Notes under the pieces: model-generated
Databases searched by the model: none
What the model saw: the letters and a program-made list of their open reading frames with translations, nothing else
Told to the model about the DNA's origin: nothing
Part shown: positions 22,134-51,782 of the stretch, in pieces
Layout: each line of letters opens with the position of its first letter
Position numbering within the stretch: position 1 is the stretch's first letter
Origin: Gloeobacterales cyanobacterium
GTDB lineage: Bacteria > Cyanobacteriota > Cyanobacteriia > Gloeobacterales > PMM-0068
Direction of reading: 5' to 3'
NCBI GenBank assembly: GCA_038245785.1
Contig: JBBRSB010000018.1
Coordinates: 1 to 64,000, forward strand
DNA length: 64,000 bases
Program-made: the position numbers and the translations under genes

Positions 22134-23189
22134 ATGAAGATTCTTGTAGTAGAAGACGATGAGTTCACCGCCTGCGCCCTCACGGCTATTCTAGACAAGC
22201 ATCGCTATACCGTGGAAGTGGCCGTCGATGGAATGGCGGCCTGGGAACTCGTTCAAGCTTTTGCCTACGACTTAATCTTGCTCGATGTGATGTTGCCTAA
22301 GCTCGATGGGATTGGCCTCTGTCAAAAACTGCGGTCAGAAGGCTATCGGATGCCTATTTTATTGCTGACAGGCCGGGACAGTAGCCACGATAAGGCGGTC
22401 GGGCTCGATGCAGGGGCAGATGATTATGTGAGCAAGCCCTTTAGTGAAGAGGAATTGATGGCCCGTATCCGCGCTTTGCTACGCCGAGGCGGACCGATGG
22501 CTCAGCCCATTTTGGAATGGGGAGGTCTGCATCTAGATCCTAGTACCTGCGAAGTGTCCTACAAAGCCCAACTTCTGTCTCTAACGCCCAAGGAATATGG
22601 CATTCTAGAGCTTTTCCTGCGTAATCATCATCGCGTCTTCAATTGCGGCATGATCCTCGAACATCTGTGGTCCTATGATGAAGCCCCCGGAGAAGAAGCA
22701 ATCAGAACCCATATCAAGGGGCTCCGGCACAAATTAAAAGTAGCTGGAATTCCCACCGATCCGATTGAGACGGTCTACGGGATCGGTTATCGCTTGAAAG
22801 CCTTAGAATCTTCAGAGTCTTCATCTTCACTTAATCAAAAAGAGACTCATAAACAGACCTTAGCCTCAGTCGCCGAAGTTTGGACCCGATTTCAGAAACG
22901 AGTTTCTGAGCAGATAGCCGTGCTGGATCAAGCGGCATCAGCCCTTTCAGAGAAAGCGTTAACTCAGGAACTGCAGCAAAAAGCGATACAGGAAGCACAT
23001 ACGTTAGCCGGAGCTTTAGGCACTTTTAGTTTTATGGAAGGATCTCGGCGGGCACGGGAAATTGAGCATCTCTTGCAATCCAAGCAGGGGCAAGAAGCTG
23101 AGCATCTTCATACATTGGTGACTGCTTTACGTCAGGAAATTGGCGATGTGACAGTTTCTTCTTCGCCAACGGAAGGAATTAAACGTTAG
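22134..23189 (+). CDS. RcaC-like response regulator: REC + OmpR winged HTH + Hpt
   Basis: VEDD, LLDVMLP, DAGADDY.SKP; LTPKEYGILELF, IETVYGIGY; AHTLAGALGTF Hpt motif. Confidence 0.92.
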   Translation: MKILVVEDDEFTACALTAILDKHRYTVEVAVDGMAAWELVQAFAYDLILLDVMLPKLDGIGLCQKLRSEGYRMPILLLTGRDSSHDKAVGLDAGADDYVSKPFSEEELMARIRALLRRGGPMAQPILEWGGLHLDPSTCEVSYKAQLLSLTPKEYGILELFLRNHHRVFNCGMILEHLWSYDEAPGEEAIRTHIKGLRHKLKVAGIPTDPIETVYGIGYRLKALESSESSSSLNQKETHKQTLASVAEVWTRFQKRVSEQIAVLDQAASALSEKALTQELQQKAIQEAHTLAGALGTFSFMEGSRRAREIEHLLQSKQGQEAEHLHTLVTALRQEIGDVTVSSSPTEGIKR

Positions 23190-23229
23190 GTTTGCGTGTA
23201 GATGTGTAGATGGGATTCCCTGCTGTCGC

Positions 23230-23646
23230 CTAAGCGTGTTGATTTTTATTTGGCAAAATATGCCAAATCTTTGCAGCAATTAAGGGAGACAGGGTCAACC
23301 AAACCATACCAAAGGGCATTAATCCACCTTGCATCACATTGTAGTCAGCGGCGATTTGTTCCCACGAATAGCCTAAAATGAAGCGACCCAAAACCATCTC
23401 AAATACAACCGTTAGTAGTAGCCATAGCACGCCAACGCTGAGCAATTGAGAGACGCGCGAAGCATGAAGCCAACGCACAAAAAGGGTGGCAATTGTCAAC
23501 ATCAAAATTGACGCCATCACAAAGGAGAGTTGATGTGCCCGCAGATCACCCAAGGTTGGTACTAGCCATAGCATGCGAATAGTTCCATTCAGGCTTTCAG
23601 CAAGAATAAGCACGAACCAAACAATAATGCCCTTGAGCAGTATCAT
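23230..23646 (-). CDS. Hypothetical multi-pass membrane protein
   Basis: Four hydrophobic segments, AESLNGTIR motif; AGGAG RBS. Confidence 0.8.
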   Translation of the reverse strand: MILLKGIIVWFVLILAESLNGTIRMLWLVPTLGDLRAHQLSFVMASILMLTIATLFVRWLHASRVSQLLSVGVLWLLLTVVFEMVLGRFILGYSWEQIAADYNVMQGGLMPFGMVWLTLSPLIAAKIWHILPNKNQHA

Positions 23647-23673
23647 GTCTCAACTCCTTAAGGTTTCATGTTT

Positions 23674-23706
23674 ACCTTAGACAACAAAGTTGAGAAACTT
23701 GTGAGG
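23674..23706 (-). promoter_or_regulatory. CCTCA direct-repeat box + -10 (copy 1)
   Basis: Minus strand: CCTCA caagtt TCTCA actttgttgtc TAAGGT, upstream of 23230-23646. Confidence 0.75.
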
Positions 23707-23760
23707 GTAAAAATAGGAGTAAAAGAGTCCTACTTCAAAATACTAAGTTTTGATAGGTTC

Positions 23761-25269: not shown

Positions 25270-25400
25270 AGGGCTACCTAATCTACACAACCGTCAGCTC
25301 TATTTTCAAACTTTTTTAGAATTTGGCGAAGGTTAGTCAGCCCGATTGATACGCTGAGGAGCAGGGGATGGATGATTAGAGAGCCGCAGGAGTAAAGGAA

Positions 25401-27386
25401 ATGGCAGACCAGCCGATCAAAATCTTATTGGTTGAAGATAATCCTGGAGATGTCCGTTTACTGCAGGAACTCTTAGAAGAGGTCGCTAATGCTCCATTCC
25501 TATTGACTGTAGTGGAGCGGCTAGAGGGAGCACTTCACTATTTAGCAAAAGAACAGGTAGACCTTATTCTCTTGGATCTTTCCTTGCCAGACAGTCAGGG
25601 GCTAGAAACTTTTACCAAGATCCATGATCATGCCGTTGCCATTCCAATCGTAGTACTTACAGGACTAGATCATGAAACCCTGACCAAACAAGTAATACAG
25701 GCAGGAGCTCAGGATTATCTGGTCAAAGGGCAGGTGGATGGACCTTTGTTGGTGCGCTCTATGCGCTATGCCATCGAACGTAAACGGACAGAAGAGACCT
25801 TACGCAGAGTGAATGATGAGCTGGAATTGAGAGTGGCAGAGCGAACTGCTGAACTTATTAATATCAACAGCCAGCTAGAACTGGAACTTGAAGAGCGAAA
25901 GCAAATAGAAGAGTCTCTCAGAGTTTCCCAAACTCGCTTTGCAGGCATCCTGGAAATTGCCAATGATGCCATTATTTCTGTGGATACGCATCAACGTATT
26001 ACCTTATTTAATCAAGGGGCCGAAAAGATTTTTGGCTATTCTACCCAAGAAGTTTTAGGTCAACCCCTTAACTTGCTTTTGCCAGGACGGTTTGCCAGCG
26101 CTCATCGCCAACACGTCGTTGACTTTACCCATACTCCTGGGAAGGCCCGGAAAATGGGTGAGCGACAGGAGATTTTTGGCCGTCGTAAGGATGGAACCGA
26201 ATTTCCGGCAGAAGCCTCGATTTCAAGGCTGGAAGTCGGAGGTGAACAGGTCTTTACGGCAATTTTGAGAGACATTAGTGACCGTAAGCAGGCAGAAGAA
26301 GCGCTAGAACAGCTCGGTCGTCAGAATGAACTGATTTTGACTTCCGTGGGGGAAGGGCTCTGCGGGGTGGACCTACAGGGAAAGACTACCTTTGTGAATC
26401 CAGCCGCCGCCAAACTCTTGGGATACTCCGTGGAAGAGCTACTGGGTCAGTCGATAGAAGTCCTACTTCCTCCCTATAAAACAGACGGAACAGCCTATGA
26501 TCTGACCTCATCACCCCTTTATGCCGCTCTGCGCAGAGGTCTGATTCATCAGGGCATGGATGAAATATTTCAGCGCAAAAATGGTTCTATTTTTCCAGTT
26601 GAATATATCTGTACACCGATTCGAGAGCAGAAAGAGATTGTAGGCGTCGTTATTGCTTTTAAAGATATTACCGAACGGCAAATGGTCGAGCGCATGAAGG
26701 ACGAGTTCGTCTCAGTAGTAAGCCATGAACTGCGAACGCCCTTAACCTCTATCCATGGGGCCTTAAGAATGCTTGCCAGCGGTTTGCTGAATAACCAACC
26801 GGAAAAGGGGAAGCGTCTACTAGAGATTGCGGTAGATAGTACAGACCGTTTAGCGCGCTTGATCAACGACATTTTGGATGTGGAACGCATCGAGTCAGGC
26901 AAAGTGACCATGAATAAAAAAGTCTGCTACACGACTGACTTGATGGATCGGGCGGCAGATGTCATGCAAGCGATGGCAGAGAAAGGAGGTGTCACCCTAT
27001 CGGCTTCTGCGGTATCTGTTCCTCTATGGGTAGACCCAGACCGGATTATGCAGACCTTGACCAATCTACTCAGTAACGCGATTAAATTCTCTCCCCGAGG
27101 GGCGACCGTTTGGCTAAAAGCCGAGGAACAAGGCGAACATGTTCTGTTTCAGGTCAAAGATCAAGGCCGAGGGATTCCTCAAGATAAACTCGAATCTATT
27201 TTTGAGCGTTTCCAACAGGTGGATACTTCTGATGCGCGTAACCATGAAGGTACAGGGTTAGGTTTAGCCATTTGCCGGAGTATCGTTCAGCAGCATGACG
27301 GCCAGATTTGGGTTGAAAGTACCCTTGGAGAAGGGAGCACATTTTACTTCACCCTCCCTCTAGCGCGTCCGAGAGGCAAGAAATGA
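25401..27386 (+). CDS. Hybrid histidine kinase REC-PAS-PAS-HisKA-HATPase
   Basis: VEDNPGD/LLDLSLPD receiver; two PAS domains; SHELRTPL, NLLSNAIKFS, DQGRGIP, GTGLGL. Confidence 0.95.
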   Translation: MADQPIKILLVEDNPGDVRLLQELLEEVANAPFLLTVVERLEGALHYLAKEQVDLILLDLSLPDSQGLETFTKIHDHAVAIPIVVLTGLDHETLTKQVIQAGAQDYLVKGQVDGPLLVRSMRYAIERKRTEETLRRVNDELELRVAERTAELININSQLELELEERKQIEESLRVSQTRFAGILEIANDAIISVDTHQRITLFNQGAEKIFGYSTQEVLGQPLNLLLPGRFASAHRQHVVDFTHTPGKARKMGERQEIFGRRKDGTEFPAEASISRLEVGGEQVFTAILRDISDRKQAEEALEQLGRQNELILTSVGEGLCGVDLQGKTTFVNPAAAKLLGYSVEELLGQSIEVLLPPYKTDGTAYDLTSSPLYAALRRGLIHQGMDEIFQRKNGSIFPVEYICTPIREQKEIVGVVIAFKDITERQMVERMKDEFVSVVSHELRTPLTSIHGALRMLASGLLNNQPEKGKRLLEIAVDSTDRLARLINDILDVERIESGKVTMNKKVCYTTDLMDRAADVMQAMAEKGGVTLSASAVSVPLWVDPDRIMQTLTNLLSNAIKFSPRGATVWLKAEEQGEHVLFQVKDQGRGIPQDKLESIFERFQQVDTSDARNHEGTGLGLAICRSIVQQHDGQIWVESTLGEGSTFYFTLPLARPRGKK

Positions 27387-27751
27387 AACGCATTCTGGTC
27401 ATTGATAACGAGCCCTATATCCAAGAAGTGACTCAAATTAGCCTGGAAACTGTAGCGGGTTGGGAGGTTCTAACGGCTGGGTCGGGCCAGGAAGGATTAG
27501 TCGTGGCAGAACGGGAGCAGCCAGACGCCATTCTTTTAGATGTGATGATGCCTGATATGGACGGACCGACCACCTTTCAACAGCTGCAGAAGAATCCTCA
27601 GACCTGCCAGATCCCGGTGATTCTATTGACGGCTAAGGTTCAGGACTCCGACCGCCGCCGCTACCAAGAAATGGGCATGACGGCCACTATTGCAAAGCCT
27701 TTCGATCCTCTGCAACTAGCCAATCAGGTGGCAGAAGCCTTGGGTTGGTAA
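27383..27751 (+). CDS. Single-domain response regulator (CheY-like)
   Basis: LLDVMMPDMDG, LTAK, KPFDP; start overlaps the kinase stop. Confidence 0.95.
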   Translation: MKRILVIDNEPYIQEVTQISLETVAGWEVLTAGSGQEGLVVAEREQPDAILLDVMMPDMDGPTTFQQLQKNPQTCQIPVILLTAKVQDSDRRRYQEMGMTATIAKPFDPLQLANQVAEALGW

Positions 27752-27784
27752 CCTCACAAGTTCCTCAAATTGTTTGTTTATCCT
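27752..27784 (+). promoter_or_regulatory. CCTCA direct-repeat box + -10 (copy 2)
   Basis: CCTCA caagtt CCTCA aattgtttgtt TATCCT, upstream of hsp20. Confidence 0.8.
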
Positions 27785-27852: not shown

Positions 27853-28521
27853 ATGTCATTAATTCGTTGGCAGCCTTTTCATGAATTAGATAATTTACGA
27901 AATCAAATGAATCATTTGTTTGAGGAGCTTGTCCATGGCGAACGTGAGATTCCATTCTTTCCTAAAGGTGAGATTGTTTGGTCTCCTGCTGTTGAACTAA
28001 AAGAAACAGAAACGGAAGTGATCCTGAAAGCTCAAATCCCTGGCATTGATGCCAAAGATCTCAATGTGGAAGTGAGCCAGGAATCTGTTTCAATTGCGGG
28101 AGAGCATCGAGAAGAGAAAAAGTCAGAAGAGAAAGGCTTTTTCCGTTCTGAATTCCGTTATGGGAAGTTTGAACGCTTAGTTCCATTGCCTGCCCCTATT
28201 AAAACAGACCAGATCCAGTCTGAATTCAAAAATGGTCTCTTGACCTTGACTATGCCGAAAATGGCACAAGCTGATCGGAAAGTAGTGAAAGTCAATCTAA
28301 CGGAAGACACTCGAAAAGTTGCGACTGAAGCACGTCAGTATCAAGAACATCTGCAAGACACGATGACTAGCCGTTTGGCAGGAGATATAGATGCCCAACA
28401 AGCGTCTGACATTCAGCAAACCGCTAGAGAATTAGCGACGGAACAACATCAACAAGAAGGGCAAGTTCAGAAGAATATGCTGGAGCGCTCGGAAGAGAAT
28501 CTAGCGAGTACTTCTTCTTAG
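27853..28521 (+). CDS. hspA: Small heat-shock protein (Hsp20) with long C-terminal extension
   Basis: MSLIRWQPF, PAVEL.ET, SEFRYGKFERLVPLP, NGLLTLTMPK; strong AGGAGG RBS. Confidence 0.9.
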   Translation: MSLIRWQPFHELDNLRNQMNHLFEELVHGEREIPFFPKGEIVWSPAVELKETETEVILKAQIPGIDAKDLNVEVSQESVSIAGEHREEKKSEEKGFFRSEFRYGKFERLVPLPAPIKTDQIQSEFKNGLLTLTMPKMAQADRKVVKVNLTEDTRKVATEARQYQEHLQDTMTSRLAGDIDAQQASDIQQTARELATEQHQQEGQVQKNMLERSEENLASTSS

Positions 28522-31195: not shown

Positions 31196-31228
31196 CTTCA
31201 CAAGTTCCTCATTTTTGGCCTCTATTCT
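31196..31228 (+). promoter_or_regulatory. CCTCA direct-repeat box + -10 (copy 3)
   Basis: CTTCA caagtt CCTCA ttttggcctc.TATTCT with 11-nt spacer, upstream of the sigma factor gene. Confidence 0.78.
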
Positions 31229-31282: not shown

Positions 31283-32158
31283 ATGGAAAAGAAAGACTCT
31301 GTAGGACTTTACTTAAGAGAAATTGGCAGGATTCCCCTGCTGAAGCCAGAAGAGGAAGTGGCGTTAGCTCGCCAAATTGCCGGGGGAGGACCGAGAGCGG
31401 ACCGAGCCAAAAGTAAATTAGTTCAGGCAAATCTGCGTTTGGTAGTTTCGATTGCCAAGAAATATCTTAATCGGGGAGTGCCTCTGATGGACCTTGTGCA
31501 AGAGGGTTCTATCGGGCTAATACGCGCTGCCGAGAAATTTGAATATGAGCGCGGATTTAAGTTCTCCACCTATGCCTATTGGTGGATTCGTCAAGCGATT
31601 ACCCGTGCGGTGGCCTCTCAATCGCGCACCGTCCGCCTGCCTGTCCACATGGTTGAAAAGATTAATCGAGTCAAAAAAATTCGCCGACAACTCGCTCAGG
31701 AACTTGGCCGCACACCCATTGCAGAAGAAATAGCCCAGGCGCTAGAAATTGATGTCGAAGAACTAGGGGATATTACTCGTGCTTCTCGTAGGACTATCTC
31801 TCTGAATGTGAGCGTAGGTAAGGAAGAAGATACAGAGTTGATCCAGTTGATTGAAGACCATGAAGTCCTTCCTCCTGAAGAGCATCTAGATCACGAAGCA
31901 CTTTGTTCAGAAGTCTATGAACTCCTCCATCGCCATCTCACTCCTCGGGAGCGAGACATTTTGGTGTTGCGTTTTGGCCTACTAGATGGGCAACGCCATA
32001 CGCTAGACCAAGTAGGCCAGACTTTTGGCCTTTCTCGGGAGCGGATTCGACAGCTCCAAGCTAAAGCCTTCCGTAAACTTCGTCGCACGCGTAGTCGTCA
32101 GCGTCTCTATGAGTGGATTAACCCAGTCGCCCTTGAGGAATCAGCTTTTTCAGGCTAG
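31283..32158 (+). CDS. RNA polymerase sigma-70 factor, group-2-like (no region 1.1)
   Basis: DSVGLYLREIGRIPLL, ANLRLVVSIAKKY, FKFSTYAYWWIRQAITRA, SRERIRQ. Confidence 0.95.
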   Translation: MEKKDSVGLYLREIGRIPLLKPEEEVALARQIAGGGPRADRAKSKLVQANLRLVVSIAKKYLNRGVPLMDLVQEGSIGLIRAAEKFEYERGFKFSTYAYWWIRQAITRAVASQSRTVRLPVHMVEKINRVKKIRRQLAQELGRTPIAEEIAQALEIDVEELGDITRASRRTISLNVSVGKEEDTELIQLIEDHEVLPPEEHLDHEALCSEVYELLHRHLTPRERDILVLRFGLLDGQRHTLDQVGQTFGLSRERIRQLQAKAFRKLRRTRSRQRLYEWINPVALEESAFSG

Positions 32159-35537: not shown

Positions 35538-35570
35538 CCTCACAAGTTCCTCAAATTGACGGTTTAACGT
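35538..35570 (+). promoter_or_regulatory. CCTCA direct-repeat box + -10 (copy 4)
   Basis: CCTCA caagtt CCTCA aattgacggtt TAACGT, upstream of the USP operon. Confidence 0.8.
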
Positions 35571-35592: not shown

Positions 35593-36111
35593 ATGTTTCA
35601 AAAGATTCTTGTAGCCGTAGACAACTCCGCCTCAGGCGAGTACGTCTTCCGTAAGGCTTTGGAACTAGCTAAGAAAACTGAGGCTAGCCTTATGCTTTTG
35701 CACGTTTTGTCCTCTGATGAAGAGGGCTATCCGGCAGTGCCTGGGTTTGATTTTGGGATAGGTGCCCAGGATGACGTGATGAGACTCTACTTGCAGCAGT
35801 GGCATGACTTTAGAGAACAAGGACTTGAGCTACTGCGGGCACGCATCTATGAAGCGACTGCAGCAGGGGTGAGTGCAGAATCCAATCAGGTGCCTGGGGA
35901 TTCAGGTAAGGCTATTTGTGAACAGGCACGTGCGTGGGGTGCAGACTTGATTGTGATCGGTCGTCGCGGCCGTTCTGGTCTTAGTGAACTCTTCCTCGGT
36001 AGTGCTAGCAATTATGTCTTGCACCATGCTCATTGCTCGGTTCTGACGGTACAACCGCTCGTCCGTGTCCCTGATGAAGAGACTCAAACCGCACAAATGA
36101 TGTCTATTTGA
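35593..36111 (+). CDS. Universal stress protein (USP)
   Basis: FQKILVAVD, ADLIVIGRRGRSGLSELFLGSASNYVLHHAHCSVL; start at ATG 35593 behind GGAG. Confidence 0.93.
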   Translation: MFQKILVAVDNSASGEYVFRKALELAKKTEASLMLLHVLSSDEEGYPAVPGFDFGIGAQDDVMRLYLQQWHDFREQGLELLRARIYEATAAGVSAESNQVPGDSGKAICEQARAWGADLIVIGRRGRSGLSELFLGSASNYVLHHAHCSVLTVQPLVRVPDEETQTAQMMSI

Positions 36112-36120
36112 GGTGAGGCT

Positions 36121-36552
36121 ATGCAGGTCAAGGTTCAACATAAAGAGCATCTGCGATTTGAGGCAATGGCTAGGGGCCATCGTATTCTGGGCGACCAACC
36201 TCTGGAGAACGAGGGCGAAGACTCAGGAATGACGCCTACTGAGTGGTTCTTGGCATCTATTGGCGGATGTGTGGGTTTCTACGCCGTTAAGTACTGTCAG
36301 TCCAGAGGCTTAGAGGCCACAGGCCTTAGTGTGGATGTTTCTGCCCAGAAAACAACGGATATGCCTGTTCGTCTGGATGATATCCAGATTCAGGTAAATG
36401 TCCCCATAGTCTTAGATGCTCACCACTACCAAGGGCTAGAAAGAGCGGTGGATGCCTGCTTAATTCATAAAACCCTGTCAAACCCGCCCCATACGACCAT
36501 CCAGATTTCTACGTCTGTGGTTCAATCAGTCCAAGCACAAACCTCCCCCTAA
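36121..36552 (+). CDS. OsmC/YhfA family protein
   Basis: DQP...G.D.G.TP.E.FLAS.GGC...C.IHKTL..PP. Confidence 0.9.
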   Translation: MQVKVQHKEHLRFEAMARGHRILGDQPLENEGEDSGMTPTEWFLASIGGCVGFYAVKYCQSRGLEATGLSVDVSAQKTTDMPVRLDDIQIQVNVPIVLDAHHYQGLERAVDACLIHKTLSNPPHTTIQISTSVVQSVQAQTSP

Positions 36553-36607
36553 GCCCTTCGCAGCCCTAGTGCCAGCGAACTAGAATAAGAACAAAGTGGT
36601 GCATAAA

Positions 36608-37261
36608 ATGACTGCGCGATTCCGTAATCGGATTGAAGCAGGCCAATTACTAGCCCAAAAACTTACGGCCTATGCTTACCGTCCGGACGTATTGGTGTTG
36701 GGGTTGCCTCGGGGTGGAGTGCCTGTAGCCTTCGAAGTGGCTAGTGCTCTTCATGTCCCCCTGGACATCTGGTTGGTGAGGAAACTGGGAGTGCCAGGGC
36801 AAAAGGAACTAGCCATGGGGGCTATTGCAACAGGGGGCATCCGAGTACTAAATCCTGAAACAATCTATTGGCTGCATATTGCTGAGCAGGACATTGCGCA
36901 GGTGGCCACGCAAGAACAAAAGGAATTGGAGCGCCGTGAGCTTCTTTATCGAGGAAATCGCCCTGCTCCTGATGTGCGGAATCGGACCGTGATTCTAATA
37001 GATGACGGCCTAGCTACAGGCTCAACCATGCGTGCAGCGATAGCTTCCCTTCGTCCACAACAGCCTGAACGAATCGTTGTCGCTGTTCCCGTTGCGCCTC
37101 CATCCGTGTACAGCGAATTCAAGACCGAAGCAGACGAAGTTGTCTGTCTGAGAACTCCTGAGCTATTCCATGCCATTGGTGCCTGGTACGAAGATTTTTC
37201 CCAAACCACGGATCAGGAAGTGCGTAATTTATTAGAGCGGGCTAGCCACGGAGTTTGTTAA
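36608..37261 (+). CDS. Phosphoribosyltransferase-family protein
   Basis: [44 protein letters not shown]. Confidence 0.92.
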
Positions 37262-37273
37262 TCAATGAGAATC

Positions 37274-37298
37274 TGACCTTCCCCCAATTTAGTGGACA
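37274..37298. mobile_element. Orphan IS3-family-like terminal inverted repeat
   Basis: TGACCTTCCCCCAATTTAGTGGACA resembles IS3/IS150 ends (TG..C.CCCC...GGACA); no transposase adjacent. Confidence 0.45.
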
Positions 37299-37350
37299 TT
37301 CCCGAAGAGTCGATAACTACTGAACTATCGATCGATTATTGGAGTTAAAG

Positions 37351-37989
37351 ATGAAACTCATTTCTGTCAACGTCGGACTGCCACGTGAAGTGACCTGGAA
37401 AGGGAAAACAGTTACAACTGGAATTTTCAAAGAGCCAGTCAGTGCAAGGGTGATGGTGCGATCGCTCAATTTAGAGGGTGATGGACAGGCTGATCTAACT
37501 GTTCATGGGGGAGTAGACAAAGCCGTCTATGTCTATCCGTTTGAGCATTACGATTACTGGCGAAGTGAATTGCCTGATACAGAGTTGCCGCTAGGTATCT
37601 TTGGCGAAAATTTTACCATCACTGGATTGAGAGAAGAGGAAGTGAACATTGGCGATCGCTTTAGTATCGGCACTGTAAACCTGATGGTGACACAACCGCG
37701 ACTACCCTGCTATAAACTGGGGATTCGGTTTGGACGACCGGATATGGTGAAACGATTTCTCGCAAGTCGTCGAACCGGATTTTACTTCCGTGTTTTGCAA
37801 GAGGGTGAAGTCGAAGCCGGAGACACTCTTGAGTTGGTGAGCCGAGATGAAAACAACATTACGGTTGCTGATATCACTCAACTTTATACCCGTGAGCAGA
37901 AAAATCCAGCGTTACTTCACCGCGCGGCTCAACTGGAAGCGTTACCTGAAAGTTGGCGCGACTATTTCCAGCAACAGGGTCTTCATTAA
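37351..37989 (+). CDS. MOSC domain protein (YiiM-like)
   Basis: GDGQADL.VHGG.DKAVY, FGENFT, QPRLPCYKL, GFYFRVL.EG. Confidence 0.92.
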   Translation: MKLISVNVGLPREVTWKGKTVTTGIFKEPVSARVMVRSLNLEGDGQADLTVHGGVDKAVYVYPFEHYDYWRSELPDTELPLGIFGENFTITGLREEEVNIGDRFSIGTVNLMVTQPRLPCYKLGIRFGRPDMVKRFLASRRTGFYFRVLQEGEVEAGDTLELVSRDENNITVADITQLYTREQKNPALLHRAAQLEALPESWRDYFQQQGLH

Positions 37990-38055
37990 TTCGTAGTACA
38001 AGGAGTGGGAATAGGTACGACAGTCAACCGTTTGTCCTCCCAGAAGGCAACTACT

Positions 38056-38445
38056 ATGAATGAAAATAACGGCATCATTAGCCAGCCCAGCCCATATTCA
38101 GTGACTGAAACAATCGATCGCTTAGAAGCCGTACTTCAGGCAAAAGGGATCACTATTTTTGCCCGTATCGATCAACAGGCTGAAGCCGAGAAGGTCGGAC
38201 TAAGCCTACGTCCGACGCAGTTGTTACTGTTTGGCAGCCCGAAAGCCGGAACTCCTTTGATGGTGGCAGAACCGACGATCGCCCTGGATTTACCCCTAAA
38301 AGTGCTGGCCTGGGAAGCGGCTGACGGCAAAGTGTGGCTGAGCTATAACGATCCCGATTATTTAAAACAGCGCTTCTCACTTTCCGATGAATTAGTCAAA
38401 AACATCGCGGTCATCGCCTCTTTAATCGAGCAAACACTGGCTTAA
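38056..38445 (+). CDS. DUF302 domain protein
   Basis: S.YSV.ET..RL...L..KG..IFARID, FGSPKAGTPLM, ALDLPLKVL. Confidence 0.9.
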   Translation: MNENNGIISQPSPYSVTETIDRLEAVLQAKGITIFARIDQQAEAEKVGLSLRPTQLLLFGSPKAGTPLMVAEPTIALDLPLKVLAWEAADGKVWLSYNDPDYLKQRFSLSDELVKNIAVIASLIEQTLA

Positions 38446-38460
38446 GTAAGGATCAAGGCA

Positions 38461-38610
38461 GTGGGCAAAGATACAGATGAAACGTATGCCTTGTGCGAAG
38501 TGATTGTTGCACCCCAGGGCGGTAGCACACCTCTTCATCGGCACAGTCGGAAAAATGAGTCATTTTACGTTCAAGAGAGAGAACTAGAATCCCAGCTTGA
38601 CAAAGTATAA
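38461..38610 (+). pseudogene. Cupin (quercetin-dioxygenase-like) gene fragment
   Basis: GKDTDETYALCEVIVAPQGGSTPLHRHSRKNESFYVQE: H.H...E.FYV cupin motif 1 only, truncated. Confidence 0.65.
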
Positions 38611-38682
38611 AACAAAGTAAAACCGCTAGAGGTATTGTTACGTAGACTGTTTAGAAGCTATTCCGAAGAACGCAACAACACC

Positions 38683-39354
38683 ATGTCCAACCACAACTTC
38701 ATGTTCAATCGCCCTCTAGCAAGCCGTTTCGTGCTCCTTGCAATCACTTCCCTGGGTATTCTGTCTCCGACAATGCTGCCAGCGTACGCCACCAATATCC
38801 CAGCTGCGACAGGAATAAAACCTCAGACAGCTGTTTTTGCAGGAGGTTGTTTCTGGGGAGTAGAAGCAGTTTTTGAGCATCTAAAAGGAGTCTCAGAGGT
38901 CGTTTCAGGTTATTCAGGGGGTAAGCCTAAAACCGCACAATATAAGACTGTCAGCTCGGGGCATACGGGCCATGCGGAGTCTGTGAGAGTAATCTATGAT
39001 CCATCTAAGATCTCTTATCCCCAACTGCTGAAGATCTATTTTCTAGTCGCCCACAATCCGACTCAGCTAAATCGGCAAGGACCAGACTTCGGTACACAGT
39101 ACCGTTCAGCGATCTTTTATGCCAATGATGAACAGAAAAAGGCCGCGCAAGCTTACATTATTCAGCTCAATAAACAACACTCTTTCCAACAACCAATCGT
39201 CACTGAACTTGCACCTTTGAACAAATTTTATCAGGCAGAAGAATACCATCAGGATTTCATCTCCCGTCATCCGTACGACCCTTATGTAGTATTTAATGAC
39301 TTGCCCAAGCTATCTCAACTTCAGAAAAAGTTTCCTGATTTATATAAGCAATAG
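38683..39354 (+). CDS. msrA: Peptide-methionine (S)-S-oxide reductase with signal peptide
   Basis: FAGGCFWG, TGHAESV, RQGPD.GTQYRSAIF, FY.AEEYHQ. Confidence 0.95.
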   Translation: MSNHNFMFNRPLASRFVLLAITSLGILSPTMLPAYATNIPAATGIKPQTAVFAGGCFWGVEAVFEHLKGVSEVVSGYSGGKPKTAQYKTVSSGHTGHAESVRVIYDPSKISYPQLLKIYFLVAHNPTQLNRQGPDFGTQYRSAIFYANDEQKKAAQAYIIQLNKQHSFQQPIVTELAPLNKFYQAEEYHQDFISRHPYDPYVVFNDLPKLSQLQKKFPDLYKQ

Positions 39355-39511: not shown

Positions 39512-41374
39512 ATGAAAATTCTACTCGTAGAGGATGATGAACATACGGCTGCTGTCCTTGCAGAATCGCTAACAGCTCATCACTATCTGGTGGATACAAC
39601 CAATAATGGTCAAACTGCCCTAGAGTTTACAAAAGCGTATGACTATGATCTGATTGTTCTAGATGTAATGATGCCTGGATTGGATGGTGTGAGCCTGTGT
39701 CGCCAGCTCCGCTTGCAAGGCTATCGGATGGCCATTGTGATGTTGACGGCAAAGGATAGCACGAGCGATCGGATCATGGGGTTAGAGGCAGGTGCTGATG
39801 ATTGTGTGATCAAGCCCTTTGATTTACCAGAATTGCTAGCTCGGATTCAAGCGCTACTAAGGCGGCCAAGAGAGACCTTTCAGGAGATTCTTAGCTGGGA
39901 AAACCTGAGGCTTAATCTCAACACGAGCGAAGTTACTTATAGCGAAAATCCTATCCACCTGACTCCGAAAGAATATGGTCTACTGGAACTTTTTCTGCGA
40001 AATCCCGGCAGAATCTTCAGTAGATTTGCACTTTTAGACCGTGTCTGGCCTCTTGGTGAATTTCCTGGGGAACAGGCCGTTAATACGCAGATTAAGGGGC
40101 TGCGCCAGAAGCTAAAAGCAGCGGGAATGAGCAAGAATTTGATTGAGTCCTTATATGGATTGGGATACCAGCTTAAACCTGCTTCAAATCAGGAAGCTAC
40201 AGCAAGGAAAGAGGAAACCAAGCAGAGCACAACGAAAGAATCCTTGCTCTCCCTAGTTGACATGGAAGTTATGGCTGATATTGCCAGGAGTTGGCTAAAT
40301 TTTAAGGAGAAATTGAGCCAACAATTTGAATTGTTTGAGCAAATAATTACTGATCTTTCAGCTGGAACTTTGGATCGTGAACGGTGGCAGCAAGCAGAGG
40401 CAAACGCTCATCGCTTGATTGGTTCTCTGGGCACGTTTGGTTTATCGCAAGGCTCAGAGGTCGCACGACAAATCGAGCAATTACTTCAGTCTGAAATTGT
40501 TTCAAATCAGCGTGCAGCGCTACAGCTTGCAGAATGGGTAACGCTGTTGAGGCAAATTGTAGAGCGAAGGAAAAAAAGTCCAGAAGTAAGGGAAGCCCTT
40601 TTAAGCAATGCTCCACCATTGCCTATTACCTCGGCTCGGTTACTGCTGATCAGTGTTGATAGTGTTTTGACAGAACAGATCAACACAGCAGCCCGCTTGT
40701 ACGGCTTGCAGGTAGAAGCGGCAACCAACCTAGCGGCAGCGAGGAAAGCGATTGCCCGTGAGCTTCCTGATGTCATTCTCCTAGACCTTCTCTTTTCTAC
40801 CCGTACTGAAGATGGATTGAGGCTACTGGCAGAGTTAGCTAGACAGAACCCATCTCTGCCAGTTCTAGTGTTCATAGAGGGGAATCAACTGATTGAGCGA
40901 GTCGCTATTGCGCGGTTAGGAGGTCGGGCCTGCTTACAAAAACCTGTTTCCTCTGAGCAACTGCTCAAGGCAGTGATTCAGTCGCTCAATCCAGTGCAAA
41001 GTGTGGATGCTCGGGTGATGATAGTGGACGATGACCCTCAAATATTGCAGAAGCTCGTGACTCTACTGAAGCCTTTGGGGCTTCAAGTCACCACCCTGGA
41101 TGACCCCCGAAAGTTTTGGGATGTATTAGAAGCATCTCGCCCCGATTTGCTGATTTTAGATATAAAAATGCCCAGTTTTAGCGGACTGGAACTGTGCCAA
41201 GTAGTGCGCAATGATCCCTACTGGCGAGAACTCCCGATTCTGTTTTTGTCTGCTCTGACGGATGAAGAGATGGTAAAACGGGGCTTTGCTGCTGGCGTAG
41301 ATGATTATGTGCGCAAGCCAGTAGTGGATACTGAACTCATTGCTCGTGTTCTGAATTGGTTGAAACGGTTTTAA
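39512..41374 (+). CDS. RcaC-like multidomain response regulator REC-wHTH-Hpt-REC-REC
   Basis: LDVMMP receiver; LTPKEYGLLELF...YGLGY wHTH; AHRLIGSLGTFG Hpt; two further receivers, the first partly degenerate. Confidence 0.92.
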   Translation: MKILLVEDDEHTAAVLAESLTAHHYLVDTTNNGQTALEFTKAYDYDLIVLDVMMPGLDGVSLCRQLRLQGYRMAIVMLTAKDSTSDRIMGLEAGADDCVIKPFDLPELLARIQALLRRPRETFQEILSWENLRLNLNTSEVTYSENPIHLTPKEYGLLELFLRNPGRIFSRFALLDRVWPLGEFPGEQAVNTQIKGLRQKLKAAGMSKNLIESLYGLGYQLKPASNQEATARKEETKQSTTKESLLSLVDMEVMADIARSWLNFKEKLSQQFELFEQIITDLSAGTLDRERWQQAEANAHRLIGSLGTFGLSQGSEVARQIEQLLQSEIVSNQRAALQLAEWVTLLRQIVERRKKSPEVREALLSNAPPLPITSARLLLISVDSVLTEQINTAARLYGLQVEAATNLAAARKAIARELPDVILLDLLFSTRTEDGLRLLAELARQNPSLPVLVFIEGNQLIERVAIARLGGRACLQKPVSSEQLLKAVIQSLNPVQSVDARVMIVDDDPQILQKLVTLLKPLGLQVTTLDDPRKFWDVLEASRPDLLILDIKMPSFSGLELCQVVRNDPYWRELPILFLSALTDEEMVKRGFAAGVDDYVRKPVVDTELIARVLNWLKRF

Positions 41375-44036: not shown

Positions 44037-44049
44037 AGAGTGTAGAAAA

Positions 44050-46542: not shown

Positions 46543-46550
46543 AAATTGCT

Positions 46551-46940
46551 ATGTCCACCAAGTGCATTCTCTTGATTGATGATGAAAAAGACCTGAGTGC
46601 GGTGATTCAGACTTGTCTAAGAAAATTGGGGGGTTGGAAAGTACTGATGGCTCAATCAGGCCACGAAGGACTACAAAAAGCCGGAACTGAGCAACCTGAT
46701 GCCATTTTGCTCGATGTGATGATGCCGGATATGGATGGCTTTACCGTTCTAAGTAATCTCCAGGGGAATCCTGCGACCCAAAACATCCCCGTCATTTTGC
46801 TAACAGCCAAGGTTCAGCCTGCAGACCATCATCAATATGCCCTGTTAGGCATCGCCGGAGTGATTACCAAACCCTTCGACCCCTTGAAAATATCTCACCA
46901 AGTAGCGGAGAAGCTAGGCTGGTCCTCAGAAGCAAAATGA
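46551..46940 (+). CDS. Single-domain response regulator (paralogue of 27383)
   Basis: IDDE, LLDVMMPDMDG, LTAK, KPFDP. Confidence 0.95.
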   Translation: MSTKCILLIDDEKDLSAVIQTCLRKLGGWKVLMAQSGHEGLQKAGTEQPDAILLDVMMPDMDGFTVLSNLQGNPATQNIPVILLTAKVQPADHHQYALLGIAGVITKPFDPLKISHQVAEKLGWSSEAK

Positions 46941-47013: not shown

Positions 47014-47046
47014 CCTCATCATTTCCTCACTTTTCCCCTTTACCTT
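47014..47046 (+). promoter_or_regulatory. CCTCA direct-repeat box + -10 (copy 5)
   Basis: CCTCA tcattt CCTCA cttttcccctt TACCTT, upstream of DUF2949-Crp-Trx. Confidence 0.7.
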
Positions 47047-47100
47047 TGAACAACCATCTCCGAATCTCACATGTTCGCTCATAGGAAGGCTAAGGTACTC

Positions 47101-47316
47101 ATGACATACGAGAACTACCTCCAGTTTATTCACTTCTTACAGGAAGAATTAGCAATTTCCACTCGTGCTATTGCTTGTGCGGAGCGTATACGTAAAAGGA
47201 TCTCACCCTATGAGAAGAATCAAAGCTCTCACCTACTTTCCATGATTCTTTGGCAACATGGGCTGATGGACATTGAACAATTGAATCGCAGCTTTGCCTG
47301 GTTAGAAGGAGCCTAA
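47101..47316 (+). CDS. DUF2949 family protein
   Basis: FIHFLQEELAIS..AI......L.MILWQ.GL....QL...FAWLE. Confidence 0.8.
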   Translation: MTYENYLQFIHFLQEELAISTRAIACAERIRKRISPYEKNQSSHLLSMILWQHGLMDIEQLNRSFAWLEGA

Positions 47317-47376
47317 TGCTAGATAGTTTCTACAAATCAATCCACTCTGAACTTATTTCTACAATGCAGGCATTCT

Positions 47377-48015
47377 ATGTACTCTTCTCCTCCTACCCTC
47401 ACCCTGGCTGTTGACCTGAAAGGACGAGTATTTAAGCAACAGGAACGGATTCCACTTCATGACAGCTATCTCTGGAAGATCAATGAAGGTACGGTTCGTA
47501 CGCTCACATGGAGTAAAGAAGGAACCTTAGTTACTCTAGGGCTTTGGGGTCCAGGAGATGTCATTGGCAAACCCCTATCTAGGACAAATCCCTACCTGAT
47601 TGAATGTTTGGAAACTGTAAGAGTTGTGGCTGTGCCCACGTACCTGTGGAATCGAGAACTCGATGCCATACTCCTTCATGCTCAATATGTAGAAGAGCTA
47701 CTCACTATTGTTCACAATGAAACAATCTATTTGCGCTTATTGGAATTCTTAATTTGGCTTGCTAACAGGTTTGGTTTTGAAGTTGAGCAAGGAAGGTTAA
47801 TTAATCTCCAATTGACCCATCAAGAAATCGCTGAAACGATTGCTGCAACACGAGTAACCGTGACCCGTGTTCTTGGAGTTTTAGAACAGGAAGGTAAGCT
47901 CTTTCGGAAGAATAGAAAATTAATTTTGCCCTACTCAGTTTATTGTTCTAAGACGATCGCAGTCGAAAGAAGTCGCCCAACTGGAAGTTATTTAACTGAG
48001 GGAAAACAGCTATGA
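47377..48015 (+). CDS. Crp/Fnr family transcriptional regulator (short cyanobacterial type)
   Basis: G.VRTLTW...G...TLG.WG.GD..G; LTHQEIAETIAATRVTVTRVL HTH. Confidence 0.92.
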   Translation: MYSSPPTLTLAVDLKGRVFKQQERIPLHDSYLWKINEGTVRTLTWSKEGTLVTLGLWGPGDVIGKPLSRTNPYLIECLETVRVVAVPTYLWNRELDAILLHAQYVEELLTIVHNETIYLRLLEFLIWLANRFGFEVEQGRLINLQLTHQEIAETIAATRVTVTRVLGVLEQEGKLFRKNRKLILPYSVYCSKTIAVERSRPTGSYLTEGKQL

Positions 48016-48362
48016 GCACACCAGTTAATTTAGCAAATAGCGAATGGCAGGAAATGTATACTTATAAGGGGCTCACTGTAGTCAATTGTTGGGCATCTTG
48101 GTGTGCCCAGTCTCAGAATATTATCCCTTTAGTTGACAAACTAGCTGATGAGTATAAAGACCGCATCAAAGTGCTCAAACTCAATATAGATGAGAACCAG
48201 GCAATAGCTAGTGAACTTGGGCTCCTGGGTCTTAATAGCCTTCCTATTACTTTTATCTTCAAATCCGGCAAATTAGTGGAAACGGTAGCAGGTTTGGCTC
48301 CCTACGAAGCTTTTCGTGAAGCCATTCGCAAACATCTCAGGGAAGGAAAGAGCGTGCATTAA
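48012..48362 (+). CDS. Thioredoxin-like protein, atypical WCAQS site
   Basis: CWASWCAQS, KLNIDEN, FKSGK.V.TVAG; start overlaps the Crp stop. Confidence 0.85.
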   Translation: MSTPVNLANSEWQEMYTYKGLTVVNCWASWCAQSQNIIPLVDKLADEYKDRIKVLKLNIDENQAIASELGLLGLNSLPITFIFKSGKLVETVAGLAPYEAFREAIRKHLREGKSVH

Positions 48363-48384
48363 CTTCAGGTTGAGTATCTATTGC

Positions 48385-49138
48385 TCAAGATACTGCAATC
48401 TGACCGATATCTGCGGGTGTTAAATATGCTTGCAGCACTTGACCATCTAGAAACCAAATAATGCGACGGCTGCGACGGGCCATATCGGGTTCATGGGTGA
48501 CCATCACTACAGTAATTCCTTCCTCGTTCAGCGCTGAAAAAATGTCCATAACCTCCTGAGAAGTGCGTGAGTCTAAAGCTCCGGTCGGTTCATCCGCCAG
48601 TAAATAATACAGGCCGATTGACGATGGCACGAGCGATAGCAACCCGTTGCTGTTGGCCTCCAGAGAGTTGGTTCGGTTTGTTATTGATGCGATTTCCCAA
48701 TCCCATACGTTCTAATGCTTCCATCGCTTTTTGGCGACGTTCTTGTGTATGAATCCCTGCATAGACCATTGGTAACATCACATTTTCTAGGGCTGTAAGC
48801 TGTGATAAGAGATGAAATTGTTGGAAAACAAAGCCGATTTTCAAATTGCGAATATGGGCTAAAGCTTGGTCATCTAACTGTGACACATCCACTCCATCCA
48901 GTTCATAGTGACCAGAAGTAGGTTTATCGAGACAGCCAATGATATTCATCGCCGTAGACTTGCCTGAACCAGAGGCCCCCATAATTGCGCAGTATTCCCC
49001 TTTTCCTATGGTCAAATTGACATCAGAGAGAGCTTTTACTTCCGTATCTCCCGAACCATATAGCTTATAAATATGCTCTAGACGAATAATAGGCTGTTCA
49101 TTGGTTTTTGATAACGCTGAACTATTGTTACTTTCCAT
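48385..49138 (-). pseudogene. ABC transporter ATP-binding subunit (MacB/DevA/LolD type), +1 frameshift near 48603
   Basis: [17 protein letters not shown]; the Walker B LLADEPTG lies in a second frame (GTATTATTTACTGGCGGAT has one extra T). Confidence 0.85.
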
Positions 49139-49141
49139 CCT

Positions 49142-50359
49142 TCAAATCCCTCTCAAAGCAACAATCGGATCTAACTTTGCCGCTTGTCGTGCTGGAAATA
49201 CGCCAAAGAAAAGACCAATACCTCCAGAAACGGTCAAGGAAATCAAGATAGCCAGCGGAGACACCGTTGCTTTCAAAGGACTAAGAACACTGATAAGCAA
49301 AGTTCCTCCAGCACCAAGCAAGGTGCCGATTAAGCCTCCTACGGCAGATAGAATGACGGCCTCAATCATGAACTGAATCAAAATATCCTGTTGCGAAGCG
49401 CCAATCGCTTTGCGCAATCCAATTTCATGGGTACGCTCGGTCACTGAGACCAGCATGATATTCATAATGCCAATCCCCCCGACCAAGAGGGAAATACCAG
49501 CAATCGCACCCAACATAATCGTTAGTCCGCCAGTAATATTACCAATAATGTCTAGAACATCTTTTTGGGTTTGGACATTAAAGTCATCTTCAACCGTGAT
49601 TTTATGTCTCAGGCGCAGTAGATTGGTAATCTGAAACTGGGCTGCTCGGATACTCGATTCATTTTTAGCAGAGGCTGCAATAAACGTTAGCTCAATGCCA
49701 TAGGGAGAAGTTCTGCCCACAATCCGGCTAGCCATCGTGCTCAAAGGGATATAGGCTATATCATCTTGATTATTGCCTAGGAAAGCGCCTTTAGCTTTCA
49801 TCACCCCAATCACTAGAAAACTGACATTCTTAATCCGAATCTGTTGTCCTATTGGGTTTTGATTACCAAAAAGTTTCTTGGCCAATTCTGAACCTAAAGC
49901 TACCACTCGGTCGTCTCTTTTGACATCATCATTGGAGAGAAAACGCCCCCTAGCCACATCAAAGCTACGAACCGTGAGGAAACTTGGAGTTGCTCCTACC
50001 AATCCAGTATTGGTAGTTTTATTGCGGTATACGACCAATCCGCTAGCATTAACCTGCGGGGCAACGGATGTGATGGAAGGAACCTCCGCCGCAATAGCAT
50101 CTGCATCGGCTAATACTAAAGTTTTCGGCAGATTGGTGGTATGTCTCCGAGAAGTTTGGGTCCCAGCCGTTATAAACAATACATTCGGACCCAAAGATTC
50201 AAACTGTTCTGCCGCTAATCTTTGCGCCCCTTCTCCAATACCAATCATCGCAATCACAGAGGCAATACCAATAATAATGCCCAACATCGTAAGGCTACTG
50301 CGTAGCTTATTTGCTATCAGCGTCGTCGATGCCATCTTGATGCTTTCTAAAATATCCAT
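49142..50359 (-). CDS. ABC transporter permease (MacB/FtsX type)
   Basis: NKLRS.LTMLGIIIG, GGIGIMNIMLVSVTERT.EIGLRKAIGA, PA..AA.LDPI.ALR. Confidence 0.95.
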   Translation of the reverse strand: MDILESIKMASTTLIANKLRSSLTMLGIIIGIASVIAMIGIGEGAQRLAAEQFESLGPNVLFITAGTQTSRRHTTNLPKTLVLADADAIAAEVPSITSVAPQVNASGLVVYRNKTTNTGLVGATPSFLTVRSFDVARGRFLSNDDVKRDDRVVALGSELAKKLFGNQNPIGQQIRIKNVSFLVIGVMKAKGAFLGNNQDDIAYIPLSTMASRIVGRTSPYGIELTFIAASAKNESSIRAAQFQITNLLRLRHKITVEDDFNVQTQKDVLDIIGNITGGLTIMLGAIAGISLLVGGIGIMNIMLVSVTERTHEIGLRKAIGASQQDILIQFMIEAVILSAVGGLIGTLLGAGGTLLISVLSPLKATVSPLAILISLTVSGGIGLFFGVFPARQAAKLDPIVALRGI

Positions 50360-50363
50360 ATAC

Positions 50364-51686
50364 TTACTTACTGCTTGTTTCTAACTCTTTAGGCAGGTCT
50401 ACAAATACCCGTTCACCAGGTTTTACTCCTTTAAGAATCTGCGTTTGATTACCAATACTGGAACCCAGGGTGACGGGCCGGAATTGGGCTTTCCCTTTTA
50501 AATCGGGAATCATTACTCCGGTTTGCCCTTGCTGGGTAACCACAGCCACCGTAGGAATGACCAAAGAATGATTTAACTGTTTACCAAGAAACGTGGCATC
50601 CACATTCATGTGTGAGCGCAACAAGACAAGACCTGTTTTAATCGTTACCCGCACTTCAAAGGAGGTGACATCCTGTTGAACTACGGCCTCTGGTGCAATC
50701 AGCCGGACTTGTCCCCGAAACGTTTTATCTGGATAGGAATCCGCCACAATTTCCACAGGCTGACCAAGCTTGACTTGACTAAGATCTACCTCAGGCACCT
50801 TGGCTAGGACTTCTAGACCATTGGCGATGGCAACAATCGAGGTTGAAGTGGCCGAAGAAGTGCTGGAAGCGGTTGTGGTTGGGGTGACGAAAGCGCCAAC
50901 TGTGGCATATTTCTGGGTCACCACTCCGGAGAAAGGGGCACGGACTAAAGTATCTTCCTGCTGTACTTCGATAGCCTGTAATCGCCCCTTAGCTTCAGCA
51001 ACAGCGGCGGCAGCTTGAGCAATTTGTTCTGGTCGCGTGCCCTTGCGCAACAGCTGTAAACGCTGCTCTGCCTCACGCACACTGGCCTGGGCGCGCTCCA
51101 GTCCTGCTCTCGCCGTTCGCTCTTCATTGAGCACGGCATCTAATTGGTCACGGGAAATAGCACCCTCTGAAGCCAGTGCTTGGTTCCGGTTGACCCGTTC
51201 ACGGGCTAAATTCAAACGAGCTTGAGCATCGGCCACTTGCGCTTGATTTTGAACTACATTTGCCTGAGCTTGCTCGATTTCCTCAGGCCGATTCCCCACC
51301 TGCAGTTCTTCTAAACGAGCCTGGACCTGAGCGATATTTGCCTTTGCTTGCACCCGTTGCGCCTCAATGTCTCTGCTCTCCATTCGGGCAATCACTTCCC
51401 CCGACTTCACCTTGTCCCCTTGCTCCACATATAGCTGGGCAATACGACCCGACGTTTTGGGACTCAAGTTCACAGTCTGAATGGGAACGACCGTGCCACT
51501 TTCGGTAATCCGTACCGCTAAGTTCTTCTCCTGCACTGGAACGGTTAGCGCATTGATATCTAGGGGCGCAGTGGCCCTAAGCACAGCCAAGTAAATCGCT
51601 ATCGATAATCCCGACAGCCCAACTAGCGCCAAGGCAATCAACCAGAGGGTCGATTTACTGACTTTGCCTATAAGAGGAAGTTGCAT
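50364..51686 (-). CDS. Efflux periplasmic adaptor (MFP, HlyD/MacA family)
   Basis: N-terminal TM, lipoyl-like VNLSPK.SGRI...V.QGD.V, long coiled coil, RAPFSG.V. Confidence 0.93.
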   Translation of the reverse strand: MQLPLIGKVSKSTLWLIALALVGLSGLSIAIYLAVLRATAPLDINALTVPVQEKNLAVRITESGTVVPIQTVNLSPKTSGRIAQLYVEQGDKVKSGEVIARMESRDIEAQRVQAKANIAQVQARLEELQVGNRPEEIEQAQANVVQNQAQVADAQARLNLARERVNRNQALASEGAISRDQLDAVLNEERTARAGLERAQASVREAEQRLQLLRKGTRPEQIAQAAAAVAEAKGRLQAIEVQQEDTLVRAPFSGVVTQKYATVGAFVTPTTTASSTSSATSTSIVAIANGLEVLAKVPEVDLSQVKLGQPVEIVADSYPDKTFRGQVRLIAPEAVVQQDVTSFEVRVTIKTGLVLLRSHMNVDATFLGKQLNHSLVIPTVAVVTQQGQTGVMIPDLKGKAQFRPVTLGSSIGNQTQILKGVKPGERVFVDLPKELETSSK

Positions 51687-51749
51687 TGGAGGAGCAATCC
51701 TAAAATCAGGGAAATCTTTGCCTAGAGATATTCCCTCTTATGTAAGTTC

Positions 51750-51782
51750 AGACTAGATCTCAAAATTGAAGAACTTGTGAGG
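51750..51782 (-). promoter_or_regulatory. CCTCA direct-repeat box + -10 (copy 6)
   Basis: Minus strand: CCTCA caagtt CTTCA attttgagatc TAGTCT, upstream of the efflux operon. Confidence 0.78.

Follow-up and report, generated by a model that had tools for sequence, protein, structure and literature searches.

This analysis concerns a promoter element that stands six times in a 64,000-nucleotide stretch of DNA from a Gloeobacterales cyanobacterium (contig JBBRSB010000018.1, positions 1 to 64,000), the whole of which we call the window. We are confident that the element is the conserved promoter box of a regulon. Fermentation, hydrogenase and dormancy-type genes dominate its targets, a point that the first-pass annotation of the window had missed. 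The predicted reader of the box is the family of the response regulator encoded at 22134, which we consider a probable assignment. We lean modestly towards a fuller model, in which this protein would activate the box-led genes and would be switched by the FixL-like haem PAS domain of the kinase encoded at 25401 when oxygen falls.

The box consists of the 16-mer CCTCACAAGTTCCTCA followed, at each of the six window sites, by a TAnnnT hexamer 11 nt downstream of the second half-site. The first-pass annotation had listed six such elements, and all six were recovered with their coordinates, strands and hexamers: box 1 at 23674..23706 on the minus strand (CCTCA CAAGTT TCTCA, -10 TAAGGT, 38.0 bits), box 2 at 27752..27784 on the plus strand (a perfect 16-mer, -10 TATCCT, 45.5 bits), box 3 at 31196..31228, plus (CTTCA CAAGTT CCTCA, -10 TATTCT, 26.6 bits), box 4 at 35538..35570, plus (again a perfect 16-mer, -10 TAACGT, 38.4 bits), box 5 at 47014..47046, plus (CCTCA TCATTT CCTCA, -10 TACCTT, the weakest at 21.3 bits) and box 6 at 51750..51782, minus (CCTCA CAAGTT CTTCA, -10 TAGTCT, 36.4 bits), the bit scores being those of a matrix trained on other genomes. 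The CAAGTT spacer is present in five of the six, as had been claimed. The pattern by which the annotation defined the element, CCTCA-N6-CCTCA, fared less well, being exact in only three of the six; it is the full 16-mer together with the -10 hexamer that carries the signal. Three exact copies of the bare pattern stand in the window against 0.20 expected, and three or more were seen in 0/100 shuffles; with one mismatch allowed the count is at chance (8 against 4.69 +/- 2.68, reached in 17/100 shuffles), and only 5 of the 14 exact matches in the whole genome are members of the box family.

A first matrix was built from the six window 16-mers with the -10 hexamer left out and was used with a cut-off of 20 bits. 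It found 17 matches in the genome and one more above 17 bits. TAnnnT stands at 11 nt in 16 of the 17, and in 10 of the 11 that lie outside the training set, against a genome background of 1.2%. A second matrix, made from 121 sites in other genomes only, recovers the same 17 sites, and the reversed matrix recovers 1. The annotation had also noted that equal frequency inside genes would speak against it; 16/17 genome sites lie outside open reading frames of 150 or more amino acids. We find it scarcely credible that the element is a dispersed repeat or a product of chance: the bare pattern with one mismatch does no better than chance in the window, but the flanks of the box are not conserved among the cyanobacterial matches compared, the matches face genes, and controls give 0-1 matches per genome. 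One pair of sites, box 3 at 31196 and G000:C16:93940, shares near-identical sequence for tens of bases around the box and leads into different downstream genes, which suggests a copied promoter.

The spacing of the element is rigid. Among the matches listed, excluding those at locus ends, TAnnnT stands at 11 nt in 52/81 cyanobacterial matches and in 1/45 others, and any alternative spacing from 6 to 17 nt accounts for at most 4 of the 81. Just past the second half-site, at positions on which no selection had been made, the sequence is AATT, with T in 80/81 of these sites at one of them. Because this AATT repeats the spacer, the unit of the box is an 11-bp repeat. In the PhoB system the pho box places two 11-bp units over the -35 region, always equally far above the -10. 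The box is likewise a direct repeat with an 11-bp period, placed at a fixed position over the -35 region above the -10 hexamer, as is typical of sites for OmpR/PhoB-type activators, and the period and pho-box-like geometry put forward in the annotation are supported. It could be argued that CAAGTT instead serves an alternative sigma factor as its -35 element, or that the box is a repressor site, and that the repeat is incidental. The spacer is almost as conserved as the half-sites (training having selected for it), some 16-18 nt separate it from the -10, and a sigma factor gene is among the targets; both half-sites are conserved, however, AATT echoes the spacer after the second of them, the 11-nt spacing without alternative fits an activator, and the box tracks a wHTH domain. 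We regard this explanation as very unlikely. With the element taken as an activator box, transcription would be expected to start about 7 nt below the hexamer; in Acaryochloris the boundaries given by RNA-seq fall 13 and 18 nt downstream of that predicted start for two genes, and for a third 42 nt upstream of it. RNA contigs from four metatranscriptome runs span the usp-hox side of one locus (L171) and leave the 600 bases upstream of its box uncovered, although such contigs cannot show starts.

The regulon had been described as local, a description that must be given up: the 17 sites of the genome lie on six contigs (six on the window contig, six on C8, two on C2 and one each on C6, C15 and C16), and the box also occurs in many cyanobacterial genera. 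Beyond the window, the box-led fermentation and hydrogenase genes are those for pyruvate kinase, a TPR protein followed by hoxF, hoxU, hoxY and hoxH, and hypA with acetate-CoA ligase. The other targets there are a P-type ATPase, a 2-hydroxyacid dehydrogenase, an Hsp20 followed by an HPF-like gene (hsp20 is box-led twice in the genome), a YgaP-like gene with sulfide:quinone reductase (SQR) and an RND pump, a second efflux operon, a desaturase-like gene, a YHS/DUF2933 gene and one open reading frame with no family match. The cluster on C8 also holds the genes for PFOR, pfk, hypD, hypE and hoxE. No antenna or photosystem genes were identified among the 17 box-led units. Small toxin-antitoxin-like and HTH genes, named by eye, interrupt the hox-hyp cluster (G000:C8:53147-59000).

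A scan of the genome collection with an exact 15-base query returned at least 122 loci, at least 77 of them cyanobacterial by title. The N-termini of the downstream open reading frames in these other genomes, read by eye, point among others to nifJ, universal stress proteins (USPs), Hsp20 and CBS proteins, and also to what we take to be ppsA, pyruvate formate-lyase and an Acg-like nitroreductase. Counted with TA at 11 nt, the box is present in 51/185 genomes of the same class and 0/215 of other classes, with 6 control matches in 401 genomes of the phylum. Its distribution is patchy by family: 35/46 genomes in f7, 4/26 in f3, 0/21 in f8 and 0/33 in f18. It is also found on plasmids, for which our counts cover 6 of 26 plasmid matches. 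The Acaryochloris plasmid pREB4 has 21 boxes against 0 controls and carries a regulator 59% identical to 22134; its boxes stand among annotated hox, hyp, usp, nitroreductase, ppsA, pfk, hsp20, nifJ and alternative ATPase genes. Five further plasmids gave, boxes against controls, 17 and 1 (Stanieria pSTA7437.01), 7 and 0 (Chroococcidiopsis pA), 3 and 1, 2 and 2, and 1 and 0 (a plasmid with a probable RfpB). The alternative F-type ATPase operon of pREB4 lies directly behind a box (L199, L206, L207; 111-204 kb). On L200, L202 and L205 (W02, W04, W06) the boxes mostly read CTCATAA, not CTCACAA, a sub-lineage variant, and on two of these plasmids boxes of this type stand beside heavy-metal ATPase genes.

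Two regulators encoded in the window had been proposed as activators of the box. The first, at 22134..23189 (plus strand), is a REC-wHTH-Hpt protein of 351 aa with Asp51, the Hpt histidine His289 and the recognition helix EEAIRTHIKGLR, as judged by Pfam, residue inspection and helix alignment. The second, at 39512..41374 (plus strand; Pfam and helix alignment), is a REC-wHTH-Hpt-REC-REC paralogue with the helix EQAVNTQIKGLR. Each wHTH domain was searched in 79 of the 185 same-class genomes (35 with the box and 44 without), with cut-offs of 150 bits for 22134 and 140 bits for 39512 that were chosen after the scores had been seen. The 21 best matches to the 22134 domain (at least 151 bits, 67-76% identity) are all in box-bearing genomes, and a match of this type is present in 20/25 genomes with two or more boxes against 1/54 others. 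The nine closest matches to 39512 show no association, only three lying in genomes with two or more boxes. The proposal stands for 22134, whose co-occurrence with the box makes it the likely reader, and is left unsupported for 39512. In three of the five exceptions (G038, G097, G271) the EAVRTHIK helix recurs in a more distant protein. A relaxed pattern found 2, 1, 0, 0 and 0 sites in five near-threshold box-negative genomes, so that G002, whose best wHTH match scores 149 bits, is borderline. In 8/20 loci a box divergent from the regulator gene stands no more than 760 bp away, and among the loci listed this box leads into usp, mostly usp-hoxEFU. With its REC-wHTH-Hpt architecture and phosphoacceptor residues, 22134 is of the RcaC/RfpB type, without the extra C-terminal receivers.

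The relatives of 22134 point to its partners. Fifteen such proteins are longer, many being single polypeptides of REC-wHTH-Hpt-REC, PAS/GAF, HisKA-HATPase and more receivers, and others ending in GGDEF; the fused forms run to 850-1770 aa, often as one polypeptide. The kinase encoded at 25401..27386 (plus strand) has the architecture REC-PAS-PAS-HisKA-HATPase (Pfam) and is the genome's best match to the kinase half in 11/14 fused relatives, the PAS kinase at 44050 being so in the other 3. Because 25401 matches the fused kinase halves best, we read 22134, 25401 and the single-domain receiver encoded at 27383..27751 (plus strand, Pfam) as a split version of the fused forms, with 25401 the likely partner kinase of 22134. 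A single receiver similar to 27383 follows many fused relatives, and 27383 would by position take the part of RcaF or RfpC in the relay. Between the 22134 regulator and the kinase lies a 509-aa phenylacetate-CoA-ligase-like gene (23761-25290; a weak NCBIfam match). The first PAS domain of 25401, whose likeness to FixL the annotation had overlooked, has its best PDB matches in FixL (E 4.6e-23) and DosP, and alignment places His235 on the FixL histidine that serves as haem ligand, so that the proximal histidine of a FixL-type haem PAS sensor is present. It is kept in 17/17 FixL-like PAS domains, 15 of them realigned. In 15/21 relatives a FixL-like PAS shares its reading frame with the wHTH, and in one it is encoded by the next gene; in the fused relatives it stands directly before HisKA. 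These features suggest, by a narrow margin of confidence, that the kinase senses oxygen or a related haem ligand.

The mechanism that we propose would run as follows. Haem-bound O2 would hold the 25401 kinase off, and the loss of O2 would start a His-Asp-His-Asp relay connecting 25401, 27383 and 22134. The wHTH domains of 22134 would then bind as a head-to-tail dimer on the two 11-bp units (CCTCACAAGTT and CCTCAAATTTT) over the -35 region, and the bound dimer would recruit RNA polymerase in the manner of PhoB. The genes switched on would be those for fermentation, hydrogenase and dormancy-type proteins, and the sigma factor and Crp genes might extend the response as a second tier.

Several observations weigh against this reading, and the first group concerns the reader of the box. 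The 79 genomes were picked after the box counts had been seen, 30 of them come from a single family, and related genomes do not count as independent cases, so that Fisher values overstate the association. A tree of 50 wHTH domains gives no supported clade for the 22134 family. The regulator of Leptolyngbya boryana plasmid1 is 57% identical to 22134, yet this plasmid has 2 boxes against 2 controls. In the source genome no box within 5 mismatches was found in the divergent nifJ/hoxE region or in the promoters of 22134, 25401 and the second Crp gene. Genomes G099 (6 boxes) and G191 (3 boxes) gave no 22134-type gene with the two queries used, as would be expected if another OmpR-family protein (39512, an RcaC-like paralogue or a short Hrr1-like regulator) read the box and 22134 merely travelled with the genes. 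The source genome encodes 12 wHTH proteins, and in the excerpt available of PMC13079394 the Hrr1 H box shares, on the opposite strand, the core AA.TTCCT and the 11-nt period. The closest matches to 39512 are nevertheless split, the tandem H box (AGGAATTTACM) is mismatched at 8-11 of 22 positions in 18 own sites, and of the two wHTH domains compared across genomes only that of 22134 tracks the box; we consider a different reader improbable. G099 and G191 (L187-L191) keep the usp-hox and nifJ boxes, with the regulator absent upstream and kdp-like genes in G099, and a recent loss of the regulator is possible in both.

The second group concerns the sensor and its signal. HMMER aligns Gln, not Arg, to the distal arginine of FixL, an invariant Arg standing one residue earlier. 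A FixL-like PAS was not found in the regulator-bearing genomes G011, G177, G231, G273 and G038 (large genomes being scored in part) or on the examined stretches of pREB4, and it is also present in genomes with zero or one box. The expression data are taken, like all literature here, from parts of the papers cited. In Nostoc PCC 7120 a 1-h CO2 step-down changed hox by -74 fold, nifJ by -42 and ppsA by -107 (PMC7699953), a joint movement that speaks for the model; the drop followed a change in CO2, not O2, and boxes of these genes were seen in other genomes. Nine box-led first genes are listed as changed in Acaryochloris, of which 7 are down after 7 days of N2 in the light and 8 are down under high O2 (PMC5295598 Table S3), while hoxE, which is not directly box-led, is up fourfold under N2 (PMC5295598). 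These Acaryochloris data fit co-regulation and not simple low-oxygen induction. They may be explained by the same box and regulator taking carbon, energy or light state (high CO2, darkness, a reduced cytoplasm) as main input, with the haem PAS as one input or absent in some lineages. The rapid collapse in Nostoc suits this explanation, as does the fall of the Acaryochloris genes under both N2 and O2 flushing if, as we suppose, both strip CO2; in addition, fused relatives bear an extra GAF/PAS or a GGDEF end in place of the kinase, and five box-bearing genomes have the regulator and no PAS match. On the other side, fused relatives carry the FixL-like PAS right before HisKA with its histidine kept, and the induction of hox and nifJ by microoxia in Synechocystis is transient (PMC11368403), so that a 7-day sample could miss it. 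Because that induction is transient and the examined pREB4 stretches yielded no FixL-like PAS, the Acaryochloris result is compatible with oxygen sensing elsewhere. We hold a main input from carbon, energy or light state to be a possible but unlikely explanation and retain the haem-switched model as the one preferred.

In the literature examined, activation of hydrogenase and fermentation genes in cyanobacteria has so far been ascribed only to global regulators of two unicellular models. The excerpts of PMC13421787 and PMC11368403 describe control of hox and nifJ by CyAbrB1/2, SigE and LexA in Synechocystis and by RpaA in S. elongatus, and control of low-O2 tetrapyrrole genes by ChlR; in the portion of the 2026 review that was seen (PMC13421787), RpaA and CyAbrB1/2 are given for hox and nifJ, and RcaC and Hpt are not mentioned. 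These regulators share target genes and the low-oxygen or dark context with the box, and in those excerpts none is a haem-PAS phosphorelay or a user of the box. A description of the box was not found in the literature searched, which is mostly open-access, and older Nostoc work on hox start sites beyond its reach could contain one; the excerpts of PMC2408588, PMC4183373 and PMC4320622 hold nothing on it. What the analysis supplies is the box with a list of its targets, a regulator that may read it and a residue that may serve its sensor. A broader reading, in which we place somewhat less trust than in the model for this genome, gives many cyanobacteria a dedicated oxygen-sensing switch: a FixL-type haem kinase, either wired to an RcaC-type factor or fused with it, would use the box to turn on a dormancy and fermentation programme like that of DosR, with hydrogenase, PFOR, PEP synthase, USPs and Hsp20. 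Such a switch would supply the upstream activator that is missing for the bidirectional hydrogenase of filamentous strains, and would be mobile on plasmids as a complete regulon. If true, an oxygen-sensing haem kinase in an oxygen producer would be relevant to mats, crusts and night-time physiology, and work on hydrogen production could make good use of the box promoter.

Within the window the genes behind boxes 2 to 6 are those that the first-pass annotation had named. Box 1 faces a 138-aa hydrophobic open reading frame (23230..23646, minus) without Pfam or NCBIfam match. Box 2 leads into Hsp20 (27853..28521, plus; Pfam) and box 3 into an RpoD-family sigma factor (31283..32158, plus; Pfam/NCBIfam), which is adjoined by a lipoxygenase gene (32805-34541) where no box was found. 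Co-directional genes for Usp, OsmC, a phosphoribosyltransferase, MOSC, DUF302 and MsrA follow box 4 as a putative unit (35593..39354, plus; Pfam). Box 5 precedes DUF2949, a Crp-family regulator and thioredoxin (47071..48362, plus; Pfam); the window holds two Crp-thioredoxin pairs, 47377-48362 and 60982-61950, and the box stands before the first only. Behind box 6 lie an HlyD adaptor, a MacB/FtsX permease and an ABC ATPase (48590..51686, minus; Pfam), the last of only 182 aa (48590-49138) with a Pfam match that stops at 129 of 137, so that it may be shortened. Downstream of 39512 (41500-46940) are CheB, CheR, the PAS kinase at 44050 and a single receiver, likely a separate relay of 39512; CheR is split over two open reading frames in different frames (42236-42610 and 42484-43542), possibly by a frameshift. 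A phage-type integrase and ParE gene pair (2796-4578) and a PemK/MazF gene (52093-52440) were also recognized by Pfam.

Compared with known systems, the box resembles the pho box and other OmpR-family sites in its two 11-bp units at a fixed distance above the -10 and in the wHTH (PF00486) of its predicted reader; it differs in its half-site, in the Hpt domain of 22134 and in targets that are not phosphate genes. The set of kinase, single receiver and REC-wHTH-Hpt regulator is like RcaE-RcaF-RcaC and RfpA-RfpC-RfpB as described in the available part of PMC5737509, and 22134 is 51% identical to the probable RfpB of a FaRLiP-like plasmid cluster. Unlike the Rca and Rfp systems, the 25401 sensor is a FixL-like PAS and not a bilin GAF (Pfam finds PAS only and no GAF match), the recognition helix differs (EDTVTAHIK vs EEAIRTHIK), and the box-led genes are not phycobilisome or photosystem genes. 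The RfpB motif is still being sought, according to the excerpt of PMC10127269. The annotation had asked whether the box matches that of a characterised regulator; the RcaC L-box was rejected with mismatches at 3-6 of 14 positions in 18 own sites, and it and the Hrr1 H box are both too divergent there. Hrr1 of Nostoc flagelliforme is alike in being an OmpR regulator with 11-nt direct repeats, a related core and a sigma-gene target, its targets reported in that part of PMC13079394 being sigB1, cpeR1 and wspA. CdgKA (All0729), considered as a characterised orthologue, was set aside, being a REC-GAF/PAS-HK-REC protein acting on c-di-GMP for which the excerpt of bioRxiv 10.64898/2026.09.11.750938 names neither wHTH nor Hpt.

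With FixL-FixJ-FixK of rhizobia and DosS/DosT-DosR of Mycobacterium the predicted system has in common a haem-type sensor domain on a histidine kinase, targets of the USP, Hsp20, CBS, phosphoribosyltransferase, nitroreductase and cation ATPase types, and a downstream gene of the Crp family. Unlike FixLJ and DosR, the output of 22134 is an OmpR wHTH (PF00486) that would act on a direct repeat through an Hpt relay and is not NarL-type, the system is often one fused polypeptide, and its host makes its own oxygen. On the features compared the box belongs to none of the Rca, Rfp, FixLJ, DosR and Hrr1 systems. To judge from the protein and promoter comparisons, it would function as a pho box does, with an RcaC/RfpB-type regulator as its reader and a FixL/DosR-like sensor and output, and its component parts are individually of known kinds.

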